From: a bacterium
Lineage (GTDB): Bacteria > Patescibacteriota > Gracilibacteria > Absconditabacterales > Absconditicoccaceae
Direction: 5' to 3'
NCBI GenBank assembly: GCA_030429145.1
Contig: JAUIDC010000001.1
Location: 427,204-467,203 of the forward strand
Length of the DNA: 40,000 nucleotides
Shown: positions 11,245-26,520 of the stretch, in pieces
Layout of the letters: every line of letters starts with the position of its first letter
Position numbering within the stretch: position 1 is the stretch's first letter
The notes under the pieces: model-generated
What the model saw: the letters and a program-made list of their open reading frames with translations, nothing else
The model's database searches: none
What the model was told of the DNA's origin: nothing
Program-made: the position numbers and the translations under genes

Positions 11245-11320
11245 GCCGCAGTAGCTCAGCTGGTAGAGCGCACCCATGGTAAGGGTGAGGCCGCGGGTTC
11301 AATCCCCGTCTGTGGCTCCA
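11245..11320 (+). tRNA. tRNA-Thr (anticodon GGU), CCA encoded
   Basis: Full cloverleaf: acceptor GCCGCAG/CTGTGGC (one G-U), D-arm GCTC-AGCTGGTA-GAGC, anticodon arm CACCC-ATGGTAA-GGGTG, T-arm GCGGG-TTCAATC-CCCGT, discriminator T, then CCA. Confidence 0.9.
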
Positions 11321-11321
11321 T

Positions 11322-11346
11322 ATATCGCACTAAGCGGTATTTTTTT
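11322..11346 (+). terminator. terminator after the tRNA pair
   Basis: Stem ATATCGC, loop ACTAA, stem GCGGTAT, followed by T6. Confidence 0.45.
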
Positions 11347-11413
11347 AAACCTCTGTTGCAAAAGTGGCAGAAGATGAGTACAAACAAGGCATATTTACTA
11401 TAGATGGAAAGAA

Positions 11414-13303
11414 ATGATCCTAGAAAATTATAAAAAACAGTTTGCGGAGCTTTTGGCAAAGAAGGTAGAGCTGTCCGCTGAAGAGATAGAAGGGCTTATC
11501 GAGTATCCGCCACAGACGGATATGGGAGATTTGGCGTTTCCGTGTTTTTCATTGGCAAAGACAATGAAGAAGGCGCCGCCGATGATTGCACAGGAGCTCT
11601 CAGAGTGACTAGAGGCAGAGTGATTTACAAAGATTGTGCAGATGGGGCCGTATGTAAATGCATTCATTGATAAGTCTGTTTTTGTGAAAGATATACTGAC
11701 TAGCGAAGCGAAACAGCAAAAAAACAGTCAGAAAGTACTCCTTGAGTACATGGGATGAAATCCCAATAAGCCACTGCATGTAGGACATGCGAGAAATGTA
11801 TGTTTGGGTGATACACTGCGCCGTACATTTCAGTATTTGTGATATGATATTACGTGTTCGCACTATGGAGATGATAGTGGTGTGAATGTTGGATATAATA
11901 TTGTGGGACATTTGTATTATGACATTCCATTGGAGAGTGAAAAGAAGTTTGATCACTACTGTGGAGATGTTTACCTGAAGATGCGTCAGCAGGATGAAGA
12001 TCCAGTGTTTAAGGAGCGCTTGAGCAAGGTACTACTGGCTATAGAAAAGGCGAATGACCCTGAGATAACCAAGCTTCACAAAGAGTACGTAAAGAAATGT
12101 ACGATAGAACAACTTCGTACCTGTTGGAGACTTGGTGCGTCATTTGATATGATTAACTGGGAGACAGACATATTACATCTCGATCTCTTTGCAGAGGCTT
12201 TGGAGATGCTCAAAAAAGATGGGCATGTGAAGTTTATGGAAGAGGGAGACGCAAAAGGATGTTGGATCATTGATCTTTCGTCGCTACCTGAATATGCAAA
12301 AGAAGAAAAGCAGTATCAGATACTCGTAAAGTCAGACGGTGTCGCTACCTATGTGGCAAAAGATATCGCTTTTGCGATGTGGAAGCTCGGCTTTCTGCAG
12401 AAACAGTTTCATTTTCACTCGTTCACGAAAGAACCTTCGGGAAATGTTGTCTACTCGACGACCTCTGATGCGTCTCTTGATGAGAATAAAGAGTTTGGGA
12501 ACGCTGATATAGCTATTACTATCATAGACAATCGTCAACTCCCTGCGCAGTCGGTAGTAAGATCGTCTATGCAGCTGATGCACTTGTTGACAGAGAAAAA
12601 AGACTATCAACCGCTTGGCTATGGTGTACTTTATCTGACTCCAAAGACACTGTTACAGTCAGGGTTTTCGCTTACTGATGAGGAGAAAGAGCAAAGCCGT
12701 CTTCCATTTGCTTCGCGTAAATGATGGACAGTAACGGTTGATCAAATGCTTGACCTCCTACAAGAGAGAGCCTATGAGGAAACAAAGAAGCGTAATGCTG
12801 ACAAGGATGAAGAGCGGCTTCGTGCAACTGCAGAGAAGATTGCCATCTCGTCGCTCAGATTTTTCCTTACGAAGACCGATCTGATAAAAGATATTACATT
12901 TGATATCGATGAGGTGCTGGATATGGAAGGAGAGACCGGTGCGTATGTGCTCTATACCTATGCCAGACTTCTTAGCGTGCTCAACCAAAATGGTTATAGC
13001 GCAGATGCAACAAAAGATATCGACTACTCACTCCTCACTGATGAGACAGAGCGGGAGATTGTCAAAGAAATTGATTCGTTTTCTCATGTGATGAGCCAGG
13101 CAAAAGAGGGACTTGCGCCACACCTTGTGTGTCGTTATGTGCTTGGTATGGCGTCATTGTTTAATAAGTACTATAGCAAGGTGAACATTAAGCAAAGCGA
13201 TGAGGCGAATAGGTCAGCAAGACTTATGTTGCTCGGGAAACTACAAGAGACATTGCTACAGGCAATGCATATCATAGGGTTGCAGGAAGTAGAGAGAATG
13301 TAA
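11414..13303 (+). CDS. argS: arginine--tRNA ligase (629 aa)
   Basis: ATG 11414 to TAA 13301-13303 joins ORFs 11414, 11882 and 12746 (offsets 468 and 864 nt) through 5 in-frame TGA. It has the class I HIGH motif NPNKPLHVGHARN and the C-terminal anticodon-binding (DALR-type) region ...YVLYTYARLLSVL.... Confidence 0.9.
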
Positions 13304-15699: not shown

Positions 15700-15776
15700 G
15701 CGGAATTAGCTCAATTGGCTAGAGCGTGTCCTTGCCAAGGACAAGGTTGCGAGTTCGAGCCTCGTATTCCGCTCCA
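15700..15776 (+). tRNA. tRNA-Gly (anticodon GCC), CCA encoded
   Basis: Acceptor GCGGAAT/ATTCCGC (perfect), D-arm GCTC-AATTGGCTA-GAGC, anticodon arm TGTCC-TTGCCAA-GGACA, T-arm GCGAG-TTCGAGC-CTCGT, then T-CCA. Confidence 0.92.
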
Positions 15777-16221: not shown

Positions 16222-16743
16222 ATGAACGAACAGCATGGTGCCAGTCATTCGCACCACACACATCATTTCCGTCATAGACGGGGATTTTTACATGACCTAG
16301 AGAAACTAGGTGACGAGCATCTGGTAAGGAAAGCTCCTTTGCAGATACCACATAAGTGGAAAGCTATCATAGCGAAATTGCTACCGATACTTGTTTTGGT
16401 GGTGGCTATTGTATCGGTTCCAGGTATCGTTGCGTGAGCGTTGTTTGTGCTTGGCTTTGCTGGTCATGGTATGATGGGGTACGGAGGTGTCTATAATTCG
16501 TATCGAGCGGCGGCATATCCGATAGTGTTGATCCAGTTGGCCATCACGATAGCGATTACAGTCTTCTACTTTAAGGCATTCAACCTGCTCAGAGCAAAGA
16601 AATATCTGGGGTGGGTCTATGTATTTTATGGTGGACTTTTGGGCCTTGTGGTCAATCTGATAGATGGAGGGATCGTATGAGCCTTAGTGTGATTTTTGAT
16701 AAGTATGTACCTGCTGTTTCAGGCGAAAGAATTGTATCATTAA
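16222..16743 (+). CDS. hypothetical membrane protein with His-rich N-terminus (173 aa)
   Basis: ATG 16222 to TAA 16741-16743 joins ORFs 16222 and 16441 through TGA at 16435, 16678 and 16690. N-terminus HGASHSHHTHHFRHRR, followed by several TM segments. Confidence 0.5.
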
Positions 16744-16755
16744 ATATGACATTAT

Positions 16756-16785
16756 AAAAAATCCGACCAGCTGGTCGGATTTTTC
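16756..16785. terminator. bidirectional terminator (perfect palindrome)
   Basis: AAAAATCCGACCAG / CTGGTCGGATTTTT (16756-16785), lying between two convergent genes. Confidence 0.7.
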
Positions 16786-17232
16786 TTATTGAGCGTCTTC
16801 TGTATTCATCTGTCTTCATTTTAGTGATAGTATCAGGATGGTGATGATGATACCCGTGCAGAGCAAACAGAGGAGGCAAAATGATTTGATGACAATAGCT
16901 TCTGTGAAAATGAAGTAGGTATTGAAGAGTAATCCTGCAGCTGAAAGATAGGTGAGAATATCATATGCCTTTGCTGATCTTCTCTTTTTGAGCCCCCAGA
17001 TAGCTATGGCTATGAGAACAGGATAGACGACTAGTGCTATCGCGGGAAATGGAATGGAACCAAACCATGCCTGCGGAGTCGTAAAGACATTTGAGCACGA
17101 GATAGTGCTTGATATGTCGCAGAATCATTTTGCATCAGTGTTATCCCTCACTTTGAGCGCAAGCTCGGTGAGATATGATGCATTGATGAATGCAACGATG
17201 CTGAGTATGATGATAACGTGTAGTTTTCTCAT
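16786..17232 (-). CDS. vitamin K epoxide reductase (VKOR) family protein, DsbB-analogue (148 aa)
   Basis: This gene is absent from the ORF track because it contains 2 in-frame TGA. Translation: MRKLHVIIILSIVAFINASYL...FCDISSTISCSNVF...WFGSIPFPAIALVVYPV...SFCLLCLLCTG.... That gives the loop Cys pair, the FGiP.a..G..aY-like segment and the CxxC in the last TM, as in bacterial VKOR homologues. The frame is 447 nt (149 codons including the stop). Confidence 0.6.
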
Positions 17233-19935: not shown

Positions 19936-21819
19936 CTATAAACTTCTCTCAGTGTACTCTTTTACTCTCTCTGCAATGAACTCGTTTGCTGAAAGAGTGG
20001 CTTGCTCTTTTGTTTTGTAGACACGAATAGAAACAGTCTTGTCGTTTACTTCTTTTTCTCCGATAATGGCGATGTAAGGTATCTTATCGAGCTCTGCATT
20101 ACGAATTTTTTTGCTAAAGCTGTCATCGCTTGTGTCGACTTTTGCTCTGAGATTGTTCTTTGCACACTCTTCTTGGAGCTCCTGGCAGTAGTCGGTGAAC
20201 TTTTCTGCAACTGGTACGAACATGATTTGTGTTGGAGCGAGCCAGAGCGGGAATACTCCTGCAAAGTGTTCTATCATGACACCCATAAACCTTTCGAGTG
20301 ATCCTGAGATAGCACGATGTATCACAACAGGTCTTTCTCTTTCGTTATTTTCATTGATAAATGCGAGGTCGAATCTTTCGGGAAGATTGAAATCACACTG
20401 GATAGTCGCTAGTTGCCACTCACGACCGATAGCATCTTTGAACATAAAGTCGAGTTTGGGACCATAGAATGCAGCTTCATCAACTCCCACTTTGTATGGA
20501 AGGTCATATTTTTCAGCAGCATCTTTGAGCGCTGTTTCTGCCTTTTCCCATACTTCATCGCTTCCGAGATATTTTCCTTCAGGGCCTCTGATAGAGAGTC
20601 TTACCCAGTAGCCATCAATCATCCCCATAGTAGTATAGAACTCTTTGATGATGCTTGCTACTGTTCCTACCTCCTGTGATATCTGGCTTACACGACAGAA
20701 GAGATGACCATCGTCTTGTGTGATAGCTCTTACGCGAGTAAGTCATGAAAGTTGTCCTGTTTTTTCATCACGATAGACAGTTGCAGGTTCGAAGTATCTT
20801 ACTGGCATGTCACGATATGAGAAAAGATTGTCAGAGAATATCTGCATGTGGTGAGGACAGTTCATCGGTTTCATGAAGAAGTCATCATCGCTTCCTTTTA
20901 CTCTAAAGAGCTCGTCACCGAACTTGTCTGCATGGCCTGATGTCTTATAGAGGTCTTCTTTTGCAAGGTGGGGAGTTCGGACTCTGCTATATCCCTTATT
21001 TTTATGTAACTCCCAAAGATATTCTTCAATCTCGCGTCTGATGATCATACCATTTGGCTGGAGAAGCGGTAGTCCAGCTCCAACAAGAGGAGAGATAGAA
21101 AAGAGCTTCATCTTTTGACCGATTACTCTGTGGTCTCTTTTTCTTGCTTCTTCCAGCATCTCTTGATGTTTTTTTAGTTCATCTTTCGACGCAAAAGCAA
21201 GCCCGTAGATACGAGTCATCATAGGATTGCCTTCTTTTGCTTGCCAGTATGCACCAGCAACTGTATCTAGTACAAACGAACCTGGGTCAATCTCTTTGGT
21301 TGTCTCTACGTGAGGACCTTCACAAAGGTCGAGAAATGTCACAAATTGATCATCATTGATAGCTCCTTGTTTTGCAAAGTAGTCAGAAATGTCTTGGTAG
21401 ATATTCATGTATTCTTCTCTTGCGTAGCTGAGTACTTTAGGAGCTGCGGCAGCAGGGATTACATTGAGATAGAAGGTGTAGTCAGTGATGCCTTTGTCGG
21501 CAAACTTTGTTATAAGCTCTTTTTTGAAACGAGAAGCATCGCCATAGAAGTTCATGATTTTTTCAGCTTCAGCTTTGTCTTTTGCCTTGTAGAAAATGAA
21601 AGACTGGTTTTGTTTCACAAGTCATTGGATAGTCTTTGTGAGGTCTTTGAGGTTGTCCTCACCGAACTCGATTCATTCGCTGAGTAGTACATCATAGTAA
21701 AATCAGTCTTCGACCGCAGGTCATGTTCCGAGGGCAACATGTGGGTCGATAGTTTGTTGTACCGCCTGCGCAAGGAGATGTGCGAGGGAGTGGCGGGGTT
21801 TAAGTATTTCAAGTTCCAT
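19936..21819 (-). CDS. thrS: threonine--tRNA ligase (627 aa), begins at the editing-domain HxxxH motif (no TGS domain)
   Basis: ATG 21819 to TAG 19936-19938, 1884 nt, joins ORFs 19936, 20743 and an N-terminal segment through 5 TGA. Motifs: RHSLAHLLAQAV, GFYYD, RDHR, MNCPHHMQIF, QLS(TGA=G)LTRVRAITQDDGHLFC. Confidence 0.92.
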
Positions 21820-21848
21820 GGTTACTATTCGTGATAAATGATAAAGAA

Positions 21849-21876
21849 AAACCTCATACCGCGATGGCAAGAGGTC
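21849..21876 (-). terminator. attenuator terminator (segments 3:4) in the thrS leader
   Basis: On the minus strand: stem GACCTCTTGCC, loop ATCGC, stem GGTATGAGGTT (one T-T mismatch, two G-U pairs), then TTTCTTT. It ends about 25 nt upstream of the thrS ATG. Confidence 0.6.
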
Positions 21877-21906
21877 TTTTGCTAGCAATGAGAAACTCTT
21901 ACCAAA

Positions 21907-21954
21907 CTATTGGGTTGACGTAGTCGTTGTGGTAAGCGTAGGCTGTCGGAGCAT
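21907..21954 (-). CDS. thrS leader peptide MLRQPTLTTTTTSTQ (15 aa)
   Basis: Sequence: ATG CTC CGA CAG CCT ACG CTT ACC ACA ACG ACT ACG TCA ACC CAA TAG. Seven of 15 codons are Thr, with five consecutive. It lies between a promoter and an intrinsic terminator, upstream of thrS. Confidence 0.6.
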   Translation of the reverse strand: MLRQPTLTTTTTSTQ

Positions 21955-21987
21955 TGGTTGGCTAGCGAATGGATAAATATTAGCTCA

Positions 21988-22016
21988 TTTATAGGGAAGT
22001 GTCGTTGAGGTTGCAA
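21988..22016 (-). promoter_or_regulatory. thrS leader promoter
   Basis: On the minus strand: TTGCAA (22016-22011), 17-nt spacer, TATAAA (21993-21988). Confidence 0.55.
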
Positions 22017-22097
22017 CAGTTTTTTTACTCTGTTTCTGCATTGAAAAAGAAGAAAGAAACACTAGATTTACGGTAGTTTACTATTGATGCGATAGAA

Positions 22098-22451
22098 ATG
22101 GCGAAACTGCTTGCTACAAGTACGCTTGGTATAGATTGCGGAGACAATGCACAGAATTTGGCCAATGGTCAATGTTCTTTCAATATCTATGAAACGGTTG
22201 GTATCAGAAAAGATCAGCCTGATACGGAGGTGGGAACTTTCGTGCAAGACGCGTTTCTTGCGGCGACATTTTTTATCGGTACGGTAGTGGCTGTTGCGCT
22301 GATCTACTCAGGCATCATGTATATCATGGCGAAGGATGACAGCGCTGCTAGCAAGGCGAAAAATGGTATCAAATGGTCGCTTATTGGTCTTGCGCTTGTG
22401 ATGTTCAGTTACACGATTGTGAGACTCGTGCAGTACATCGCTAAGGGATAA
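22098..22451 (+). CDS. TrbC/VirB2-like (T4SS-type) pilin-like membrane protein (117 aa)
   Basis: The C-terminal architecture is TM, Y.G, short K-rich loop, TM (FLAATFFIGTVVAVALIYSGIMYIMAKDDSAASKAKNGIKWSLIGLALVMFSYTIV). It is shared with the genes at 25570 and 26056. The N-terminus lacks an obvious signal peptide. Confidence 0.5.
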   Translation: MAKLLATSTLGIDCGDNAQNLANGQCSFNIYETVGIRKDQPDTEVGTFVQDAFLAATFFIGTVVAVALIYSGIMYIMAKDDSAASKAKNGIKWSLIGLALVMFSYTIVRLVQYIAKG

Positions 22452-25569: not shown

Positions 25570-26040
25570 ATGAAAAAACTTATTACATTGATCTTGTTGG
25601 TTGTTGTTGGGTGGTCGACTGTCTCGGCTATCAGCTTTTTCGATAATACGTCGAGTGTTTATACAAGAGATCAGCAAGATGCGGTAAAGACAGATGATAT
25701 CTGTGCGACAGATCCACTGAGATGTGGCATGGATAATCCAGGAAGTCGTATACAGGGACTCTATTACAATGGTCCAATTTCAACAGTCTATGAGGCGCAA
25801 AATCAGACGCTGGGATATGTGCATAATATCATCAATTGGGCGTTATCACTCCTTGGGCTGATAGCTCTTTGTTATCTTGTTTATCACGGATTTAATATCG
25901 TGTTAGGTGTAGGTGATGAGGCAAAGACAAAAGCGTGATGGAAAGGACTGAGGACTGGAGCAATTGCTATCGCAGGTGTTGCGTTGAGCTGGTTTATCGT
26001 GAGTCTTATCGTCTATATGATAGATCTGTTTATCCAATAA
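25570..26040 (+). CDS. TrbC/VirB2-like (T4SS-type) pilin-like protein (156 aa)
   Basis: Signal peptide MKKLITLILLVVVGWSTVSA. The C-terminus is TM, YHG, loop (GDEAKTKA-TGA-WKG), TM. One in-frame TGA at 25936. Confidence 0.55.
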
Positions 26041-26055
26041 TATTTGAAAACAAAA

Positions 26056-26520
26056 ATGAAAAACATAAAGCATAGAGGAATTCTTGGGTGGGTCATCGTG
26101 GCGATGATGAGCTTGATGCAGGTTGTGCCTGCTGTCAATGCTATCGATCGAGACCCATACTATCAGGAGATGGAAAACGCTGGAAGACCTACTGCTGATG
26201 CAGGAAGTATCGTTGGTGACACCAATCAGCAGGGTAGTCTTTTAGAAACGCTTCTTGATGTATTTGATATCAACTACGCCGGAGATGGGAAAGCATTGAA
26301 ATATGTACAGGTTGTGATTAATTATGTAATATCATTTGCTGCGTTTATTGCATTGATAGTTATCATCTATGGATTTTATATGATGTTCTTCCGTGAGCAG
26401 GATAAGTGATTTAGTTCTGCAAGGAAAACGATCATTGGTGCAGCGATAGCTCTCTTTGTGATAGGAATCTCTCGAATATTTGTTAACTTTGCGTTTTACG
26501 TGTTCAATAGAGGAATTTAA
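26056..26520 (+). CDS. TrbC/VirB2-like (T4SS-type) pilin-like protein (154 aa)
   Basis: Signal peptide ...ILGWVIVAMMSLMQVVPAVNA. The C-terminus is TM (FAAFIALIVIIYGFYMMF), loop (REQDK-TGA-FSSARK), TM (IIGAAIALFVIGISRIFV). Confidence 0.55.

Follow-up and report, generated by a model that had tools for sequence, protein, structure and literature searches.

A probable threonine leader-peptide attenuator upstream of thrS in an Absconditabacterales bacterium that reads TGA as an amino acid

Control of aminoacyl-tRNA synthetase (aaRS) genes by leader peptides is already known. The pheST attenuator of Escherichia coli is established and is cited as the gamma-proteobacterial precedent (PMC1262725), and predictions of leader-peptide attenuation exist for trpS and leuS of Streptomyces (PMC1262725), for two Bacillus hisS paralogs, hisZ and hisS*, which are preceded by a His leader (PMC2965389), and for alaS, thrS, trpS, and leuS of Streptomyces lividans (PMC8079986). 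Among the latter, the proposed thrS element, thrL, is leaderless and contains 2 Thr in 18 residues, and its authors describe no clear U-rich rho-independent terminator (PMC8079986). This article concerns the region upstream of thrS, the gene for threonyl-tRNA synthetase (ThrRS), on the minus strand of a 40,000-nucleotide (nt) stretch of an Absconditabacterales genome (contig JAUIDC010000001.1), referred to here as the window. The region carries a short open reading frame (ORF) rich in Thr codons, followed by alternative RNA helices and a terminator-like hairpin, and it is very probably a ribosome-mediated leader-peptide transcription attenuator that would tune thrS to the supply of charged tRNA-Thr. 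What is new is a probable thrS attenuator family in a lineage that uses genetic code 25 and largely lacks Shine-Dalgarno sequences.

The element resembles the pheST system, with its leader gene pheM, in the presence of a cognate-codon leader ORF before an aaRS gene, a terminator/antiterminator switch, and proposed feedback from charged tRNA; the pheST system differs in its response to Phe and in its proteobacterial host with Shine-Dalgarno sequences and the standard code. The aaRS attenuators predicted in Gram-positive bacteria share its principle and target class, but S. lividans thrL, with two Thr residues and no clear terminator, differs from the present family, in which leaders have 4-9 Thr, a hairpin and U-tract follow, and covariation extends over about 74 loci in another phylum. 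The literature searched contained no earlier thrS leader-peptide candidate other than S. lividans thrL (PMC8079986), in view of which the initial annotation, aware of no described thrS example, was slightly overstated, and yielded no description of the present element or of any attenuator in Candidate Phyla Radiation (CPR) or code-25 bacteria, in keeping with the narrower part of the same statement.

Three further systems invite comparison. The enterobacterial Thr_leader of thrABC (RF00506) likewise combines a leader peptide rich in Thr codons with a terminator/antiterminator switch, but its target is threonine biosynthesis instead of the synthetase, and its model does not match here. The thrABC leader also holds Ile codons. 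The thrS T-box of Firmicutes shares with the present element the gene, the tRNA-Thr charging signal, and transcription antitermination as the output, but it binds tRNA directly and needs no ORF, whereas the sensor proposed here is the translating ribosome. The thrS operator of E. coli provides negative feedback on the same gene, although there a protein bound to a tRNA-like operator at the ribosome-binding site blocks translation, whereas the present hairpin has a U-tract, lies away from the thrS start codon, and carries the loop AUCGC, in which no Thr anticodon triplet occurs.

Direct reading of the minus strand of positions 21700-22200 confirmed the promoter, mini-ORF, segments, hairpin, and outer helix where the initial annotation had placed them (all features of the element are on the minus strand). 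The leader mini-ORF, MLRQPTLTTTTTSTQ, occupies 21907-21954 (ATG at 21954, TAG at 21907) and comprises 15 codons plus TAG, 7 of which are Thr codons, 5 in succession, with all four ACN codons in use. The uninterrupted run, ACC ACA ACG ACT ACG, lies at 21919-21933, and the other two Thr codons lie at 21937-21939 and 21913-21915. Segment 1, CGCTTACC at 21938-21931 (in its longer form CGCUUACCA, 21930-21938), overlaps the start of the Thr run, and segment 2, GGTAAGAG at 21903-21896 (longer form UGGUAAGAG, 21896-21904), begins 2-3 nt past the TAG and has two alternative partners, segment 1 and segment 3. Segment 3, CTCTTGCC at 21873-21866, lies within the terminator 5' arm, GACCUCUUGCC (21866-21876), and is common to the antiterminator (2:3) and the terminator (3:4), while segment 4, GGUAUGAGGUU at 21850-21860, is the terminator 3' arm in the 3:4 hairpin fold. 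The resulting terminator-like hairpin, GACCTCTTGCC-ATCGC-GGTATGAGGTT, spans 21876-21850 and is followed by TTTCTTTAT; the U-tract, UUUCUUUAU at 21841-21849, makes this a predicted intrinsic terminator. Between the end of the U-tract and the ATG of thrS there are 21 nt, a shorter gap than the approximately 25 nt initially given, and this gap leaves no room for a separate thrS promoter.

The thrS gene itself (19936-21819) encodes a protein of 627 amino acids (aa) whose frame is open only when TGA is read as Gly; its product matches the Pfam families tRNA-synt_2b (class II core, 2.9e-42), HGTP_anticodon (anticodon-binding), and tRNA_SAD. The standard bacterial code splits thrS into fragments, and the long genes of the window require TGA as a sense codon (code 25); an in-frame TGA is found, for example, at 21727-21729 within thrS, at GTGPAVEDGFYYD in ThrRS. 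The neighbour on the other side of the element, at 22098-22451 on the plus strand, encodes a T4SS-pilin-like protein (Pfam T4SS_pilin) and is divergent from thrS, which rules out the hairpin as the terminator of an upstream gene.

Upstream of the leader, a -35-like hexamer, TTGCAA (22011-22016), is separated by a 17-nt spacer from a -10-like hexamer, TATAAA (21988-21993). We infer a promoter role for this pair, with a transcription start near 21981. The pattern TTGCA(A/T), about 17 nt, TAnAnT occurs at the same distance 5' of the leader in relatives L004, L009, L011, L018, L019, L023, L026, and L028. A simple promoter and terminator scan reported neither site in the window, as TATAAA lacks the required final T and the terminator stem contains a U-U mismatch, and its silence is uninformative because its rules are strict.

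According to the proposed mechanism, transcription would begin about 27 nt 5' of the 15-codon leader ORF, and a ribosome would translate the leader while RNA polymerase advances. With ample Thr-tRNA, the ribosome would reach the TAG and cover segment 2, the 3:4 hairpin would form, and transcription would stop at the U-tract, short of thrS. When Thr-tRNA is scarce, as would result from too little ThrRS activity, the ribosome would stall in the Thr run and cover segment 1, leaving segment 2 free; the freed segment 2 would pair with segment 3 before segment 4 is synthesized, no terminator would form, and thrS would be transcribed. In untranslated RNA of the window, the 1:2 hairpin and the outer helix would form, making termination the expected default. 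Leader translation, termination at the hairpin, and the response to Thr-tRNA are predictions of this model.

Folding of the leader RNA is consistent with these alternatives. The minimum free energy (MFE) fold of the 140-nt leader, taken from the inferred start at about 21981 to the U-tract, consists of the outer helix, 1:2, and 3:4 at -34.4 kcal/mol (z = -3.5), and none of 200 dinucleotide shuffles folded as well. The ribosome-free nascent RNA ending before segment 4 forms 1:2 and the outer helix at -18.7 kcal/mol, with segment 3 free. When a ribosome was modelled as a masked footprint of 28 nt, placing its A site at Thr8, Thr10, or Thr12 gave the 2:3 antiterminator as the MFE fold (-13.8 to -15.8 kcal/mol), while an A site at Thr14 or at the stop codon covered segment 2, so that 2:3 was blocked and segment 3 was left free. 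Segment 1 pairs with UGGUAAG in both the MFE and the centroid folds of the window. The outer helix, also present in both folds, closes the 1:2 domain by pairing GCUAGC (GCTAGC, 21961-21966) with positions 21881-21886, which belong to a spacer element, CAUUGCUAGC (21881-21890, GCTAGC at 21886-21881), serving as its 3' arm; together with CCAAUG, the GCUAGC arm buries the start region of the leader ORF.

The spacing of these parts fits the demands of a ribosome. Across the family, the median distance between the first base of the stop codon and the start of segment 2 is 2 nt (range -9 to +7), and the median end of segment 2 is at +14; a ribosome whose A site holds the stop codon therefore covers segment 2. 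Relative to the Thr codons, segment 2 lies 13 nt past the last and 32 nt past the first of the dense window of codons, and therefore a ribosome stalled at most of the Thr codons leaves segment 2 free. Judged by sequence, all that is expected of an attenuator is present except a conserved 1:2 hairpin: a short same-strand upstream ORF behind a promoter-like site, a cluster of cognate codons, a terminator, a mutually exclusive antiterminator, and spacing suited to a ribosome.

The distribution of Thr-rich mini-ORFs was studied at thrS loci of relatives, retrieved by a ThrRS protein search with one genome per species, which gave 80 loci from SR1/Absconditabacteria, Gracilibacteria, and other CPR bacteria, 78 of them analysable; a further 80 thrS loci from metagenomes brought the number to 160. 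The nearest relative, L001, has a ThrRS with 75% identity to that of the window. Mini-ORFs were counted on both strands of the 78 loci if they began with ATG, had 8-30 codons, and contained at least 5 Thr in 8 residues. The 250-nt zones before thrS, 19 kb in total, contained 21 such ORFs, and the other 1.32 Mb contained 7, every one of which lies on the same strand upstream of thrS beyond inserted accessory genes; thus none was found anywhere in the 1.32 Mb other than in the same-strand thrS upstream position. No amino acid other than Thr showed enrichment in the proximal zone. A search of the 160 loci for mini-ORFs rich in any single amino acid and followed by a terminator returned 28 + 21 Thr cases, the others being scattered noise, and analogous leaders for other amino acids, sought in the window and all 160 loci, amounted only to noise. 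No leader precedes either the putative argS of the window, which comes after a tRNA-Thr gene, or its gltX, which is internal to an operon.

In the relatives, the Thr-rich mini-ORFs start 130-170 nt and stop 85-115 nt before thrS. The peptides of the family contain 4-9 Thr, usually in runs, are 13-20 aa long, and are free in sequence outside the Thr run, as illustrated by L001 (MKQARQLTTTTTTGTTP), L006 (MRQLTTTRTTTTD), L018 (MSYSTTTTTTTTTD), L022 (MKHIHSTTTTTTTTTIV), L026 (MKKLLMTTTTTSTTTSR), and L042 (MVAQLVTTTTNLTSS). The leader ORFs of L004 and L005 match the window peptide at both ends (MLRQ...TQ). Selection on the codons is visible in the structure-blind alignment A1, in which 30 leaders were aligned with MAFFT: the Thr run has a strict period of 3, with entropies of 0-0.9 bits in the A and C columns and 1.85-1.99 bits at third positions (maximum 2), which indicates that codon identity is the selected feature. 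Near relatives, such as L018 and L019, differ by entire codons, and insertions and deletions preserve the frame.

Every member has a hairpin and U-tract 21-49 nt past the leader stop, and in every member the hairpin's 5' arm has a complementary segment located at the stop codon. RNAalifold applied to A1 returned the 2:3 helix as the consensus, with compensatory changes in 6 of 8 pairs, and did not return 3:4. In A1 the sequences are not in register over the terminator 3' arm (74% pairing in the best register), and therefore a covariance model (R1) was built from the 30 leaders with the terminator as its only structure, and the leaders were realigned; the resulting alignment A3 contains 38 sequences, and the 2:3 helix was not fitted in it. 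The T-run columns of the U-tract are invariant or almost so in both alignments.

Both alternative helices are supported by these comparisons. For 2:3 on A1, the share of paired cells is 85.0%, a level that none of 500 shuffles reached (74.8% after shuffling, 35-55% with the partner slid); its covariation score is 0.477 against 0.301. On A3, the same helix has 74.7% paired cells against 67.8% (0 of 500), a covariation score of 0.356 against 0.254, and changes on both sides in 7 of 9 pairs, while 3:4 has 80.9% paired cells against 70.4% (0 of 500), a score of 0.394 against 0.210 (again 0 of 500 as high), and changes on both sides in 8 of 10 pairs. Duplex energies are also lower when both strands come from the same locus than when they come from different loci, at -10.97 and -8.19 kcal/mol for 2:3 and -11.29 and -6.72 kcal/mol for 3:4 (p <= 1e-4 in each case). 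The identical columns of segment 3 pair with segment 2 and with segment 4, and the antiterminator is 8-9 base pairs long.

The model R1 matched over its full length at 44 of the 78 genome loci, with E-values from 1e-20 to 1e-3, and at 30 of the 80 metagenome loci, about 74 loci in all, and every strong match lies on the thrS strand upstream of thrS. The Thr-sensing attenuator claimed by the initial annotation is thereby borne out in its comparative aspects, with the leader ORF, the terminator, and 2:3 conserved and covarying in about 74 SR1/Absconditabacteria and Gracilibacteria loci, and the comparison with relatives that it had recommended gave a positive outcome for the Thr run, 2:3, and 3:4. 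The element is present at 39 of the 54 loci whose thrS contains an in-frame TGA and at 5 SR1/Gracilibacteria loci whose thrS is free of it, and is absent from all remaining CPR loci with a thrS free of in-frame TGA.

Several observations weigh against interpreting the element as an attenuator or against parts of the scheme. As isolated helices in the window, 3:4 (-13.3 kcal/mol) is more stable than 2:3 (-9.5 kcal/mol), so that the terminator wins at equilibrium; for antitermination to occur, 2:3 must therefore form first, ahead of the synthesis of segment 4, under kinetic control. The trp leader of E. coli shows the same kinetic behaviour. The 1:2 hairpin occurs in the MFE folds of several SR1 members as well as in that of the window, but its same-locus partner matching is weak (p = 0.03), and the position of segment 1 is not conserved, being in the Thr codons in many SR1 members, in the start-codon region in L004, and in the last leader codons in Gracilibacteria. 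In the ribosome-free nascent RNA, 2:3 is favoured in 23 of 30 members and 1:2 in 7 of 30, including the window; either the default state varies among members or thermodynamic folding misjudges co-transcriptional folding. The outer GCUAGC helix is specific to the window, SR1 relatives L001, L006, L009, and L026 forming a different long-range helix there, and a metagenome scan for closer relatives with which to test it found none above 66% ThrRS identity. Both the 1:2 hairpin and the helix that would sequester the start codon, as initially described, are thus found in the fold of the window, but the former is dominant in only 7 of 30 members. Because support for 1:2 is weak, the conserved logic lies in the abutment of the stop codon on segment 2 and not in a strict three-hairpin scheme, and the protector hairpin is either lineage-specific or under kinetic control that equilibrium folding misses.

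Points of the same tendency come from distribution and translation. The element is missing at 15 of the 54 loci with an in-frame TGA in thrS, and some homologues in Gracilibacteria are low in Thr while keeping the MVAQL... 5' end (L047, MVAQLDTDMHSFFLTIS; L062; L068), with genes other than thrS coming next after the element in all three. The leader ORF of the window has no Shine-Dalgarno sequence, although this is the norm in the genome: when the 25 nt upstream of 32 window genes were checked, a Shine-Dalgarno-like 4-mer at -20 to -4 was found in 1, and the upstream regions are A/T-rich; initiation in this organism apparently does without Shine-Dalgarno pairing.

Other explanations of the locus have to be weighed against the attenuator. 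One is that an independent small gene, either for a Thr-rich micropeptide or for a small RNA of about 140 nt, happens to precede thrS, whose own expression would come from constitutive read-through or in some other way, the alternative pairing being non-regulatory. The unit does have a promoter-like site and a terminator of its own, and it is physically separable from thrS, since unrelated accessory genes lie between the two in about 11 relatives; however, its peptide varies freely in sequence outside the Thr run and in length, it is always found 5' of thrS and in the orientation of thrS, covariation between segment 2 and the terminator 5' arm would be purposeless in a free-standing gene, and the 21-nt gap would leave thrS without a promoter, all of which makes such a gene very unlikely. 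Autoregulation by ThrRS in the manner of E. coli thrS, with hairpins that mimic the anticodon arm of tRNA-Thr and a bound ThrRS that represses, has a precedent in the E. coli enzyme, which binds its own mRNA leader to regulate expression (mentioned in PMC2965389). Here, however, the hairpin bears a U-tract and ends before the ATG with no overlap with the thrS translation start, the terminator loops are not conserved in A3, the AUCGC loop of the window contains none of the anticodon triplets GGU, UGU, or CGU, and the Thr-codon ORF and the covariation of 2:3 would both go unexplained, leaving this account scarcely credible.

A T-box-like riboswitch, in which tRNA is sensed without translation, the ACN repeats act as specifiers for the anticodon of tRNA-Thr, and binding stabilizes the antiterminator, is a further candidate. 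In Firmicutes, thrS is a classic target of T-boxes (PMC2494555, PMC7583486), direct pairing with an anticodon would likewise produce period-3 conservation of ACN, and segment 2 often has UGGU, which could in principle pair with the ACCA 3' end. Nevertheless, no T-box model (RF00230) or Thr_leader model (RF00506) matched in an Rfam scan of 21700-22200 at E <= 10, and scans of the whole window and 17 relatives at the gathering score returned tRNAs only, with no T-box or Thr_leader; the Rfam models named in the initial annotation therefore do not explain the region. The window folds only into 1:2, 2:3, and 3:4, with nothing resembling Stem I or a specifier loop, the Thr run always sits between an ATG and an in-frame stop codon that abuts segment 2, an in-frame TGA replaces CAA in some leaders, and UGGU lies within the 2:3 helix and not in a bulge and is missing in most Gracilibacteria members. 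Such a riboswitch is accordingly judged highly improbable. Rfam 15 contains no family for the element. The only other match nearby, to the trpB motif (RF04312), reached 22.9 bits where the gathering score is 59 (E = 0.74); it lay mostly on the terminator and was set aside. This motif is not mentioned in PMC8632094.

The attenuator family also bears on the reassigned genetic code. In three Gracilibacteria loci (L038, L053, and L068), the leader has TGA at a codon that is CAA in other Gracilibacteria (GCA TGA CTT GTA ACC against GCA CAA CTT GTA ACC), and in L027 and L045 an in-frame TGA is likewise located ahead of the Thr codons; these leader ORFs lie at L038:2964-3017, L053:3808-3870, L068:1752-1810, L027:320-383, and L045:3858-3976. 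In all five, the TGA precedes the Thr codons, which can thus be reached only with TGA as sense, as in thrS. These leaders make sense only if TGA encodes an amino acid and therefore offer independent support for the reassigned code. A wider proposal, that this code-25 clade controls its aaRS genes by leader peptides instead of T-boxes and that UGA-bearing leaders also report on the decoding of UGA as Gly, is speculative and unlikely; if it were true, the attenuators of these five relatives would gain a second input tied to the altered code.

A CCAACC-like motif recurs among SR1 as well as Gracilibacteria leaders, 3-20 nt before the ATG, at 21955-21966 in the window and in L004, L005, L026, L034, L039, L047, L050, L051, L062, L067, L068, L069, and L076. 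The first leader codons retain the nucleotides ACAGCUUAC (SR1) or GCACAACUUG (Gracilibacteria) despite amino acid changes among Q, R, G, and L. The motif and the conserved first codons could act in initiation, in pausing, or as a partner in base pairing; under the wider proposal, CCAACC with GCACAACUUG or ACAGCUUAC could give ribosomes that initiate without Shine-Dalgarno sequences a dedicated signal to start or to pause.

Absconditabacteria (SR1) and Gracilibacteria are nearly all uncultured and combine tiny genomes with a reassigned stop codon, and no gene regulation in these groups was described in the literature searched. The element would imply that these cells employ intrinsic termination, initiate translation on a 15-codon ORF in the Shine-Dalgarno-less mode, and couple translation to transcription tightly enough for attenuation. 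It adds a strongly supported thrS case to the short list of synthetase genes predicted or known to be under leader-peptide control. The leader of the window has no TGA codon and is directly testable in E. coli or Bacillus subtilis, and the covariance model can be used to annotate the element in metagenome-assembled genomes.

Variation in gene order around the element offers further detail. In about 11 relatives (L014, L020, L021, L027, L038, L047, L050, L051, L062, L065, and L068), genes amounting to 0.6-2.6 kb separate the attenuator from thrS and would fall under Thr-dependent control. Examined by eye, with no family search, their products resemble HD-domain, IS200-type transposase, Fic/DOC-type, and KilA-N-type proteins and a VKOR-type membrane protein. 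In two oral SR1 loci (L010:1790-2019 and L012:2200-2429), the conserved promoter-like site, CTCTTGCAT...TAAAAT, is kept directly before thrS and both the leader ORF and the attenuator are absent, a state that looks like loss of the element.

Among the weaker matches to R1, one at L130:4566-4684 is full-length (26.4 bits, E = 9e-5) and lies downstream of thrS, before a gene whose N-terminus appears Asp/Glu racemase-like by eye; it contains the mini-ORF MQNFINIIRRHTALELSLGVCLCI followed by a hairpin and U-tract and could represent either some unrelated attenuator or no more than a terminator. Partial matches on both strands of the window at 16732-16851 lie between the convergent genes 16222-16743 (plus strand) and 16786-17232 (minus strand), which suggests a bidirectional intrinsic terminator and the use of hairpins with U-tracts at gene ends in this genome. 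Similar partial matches occur 3' of thrS in L064, L080, and L160.

Elsewhere in the window, genes for tRNA-Thr(GGU) and tRNA-Gly(GCC) are located at 11245-11320 and 15700-15776, the former directly before an argS-like ORF at 11276-13303, which was recognized by eye from its translation and whose true start is probably near 11411. Two ORFs at 25570-26040 and 26056-26520 encode small membrane proteins that by eye resemble, in size and hydrophobic pattern, the T4SS_pilin-matching product of 22098-22451.

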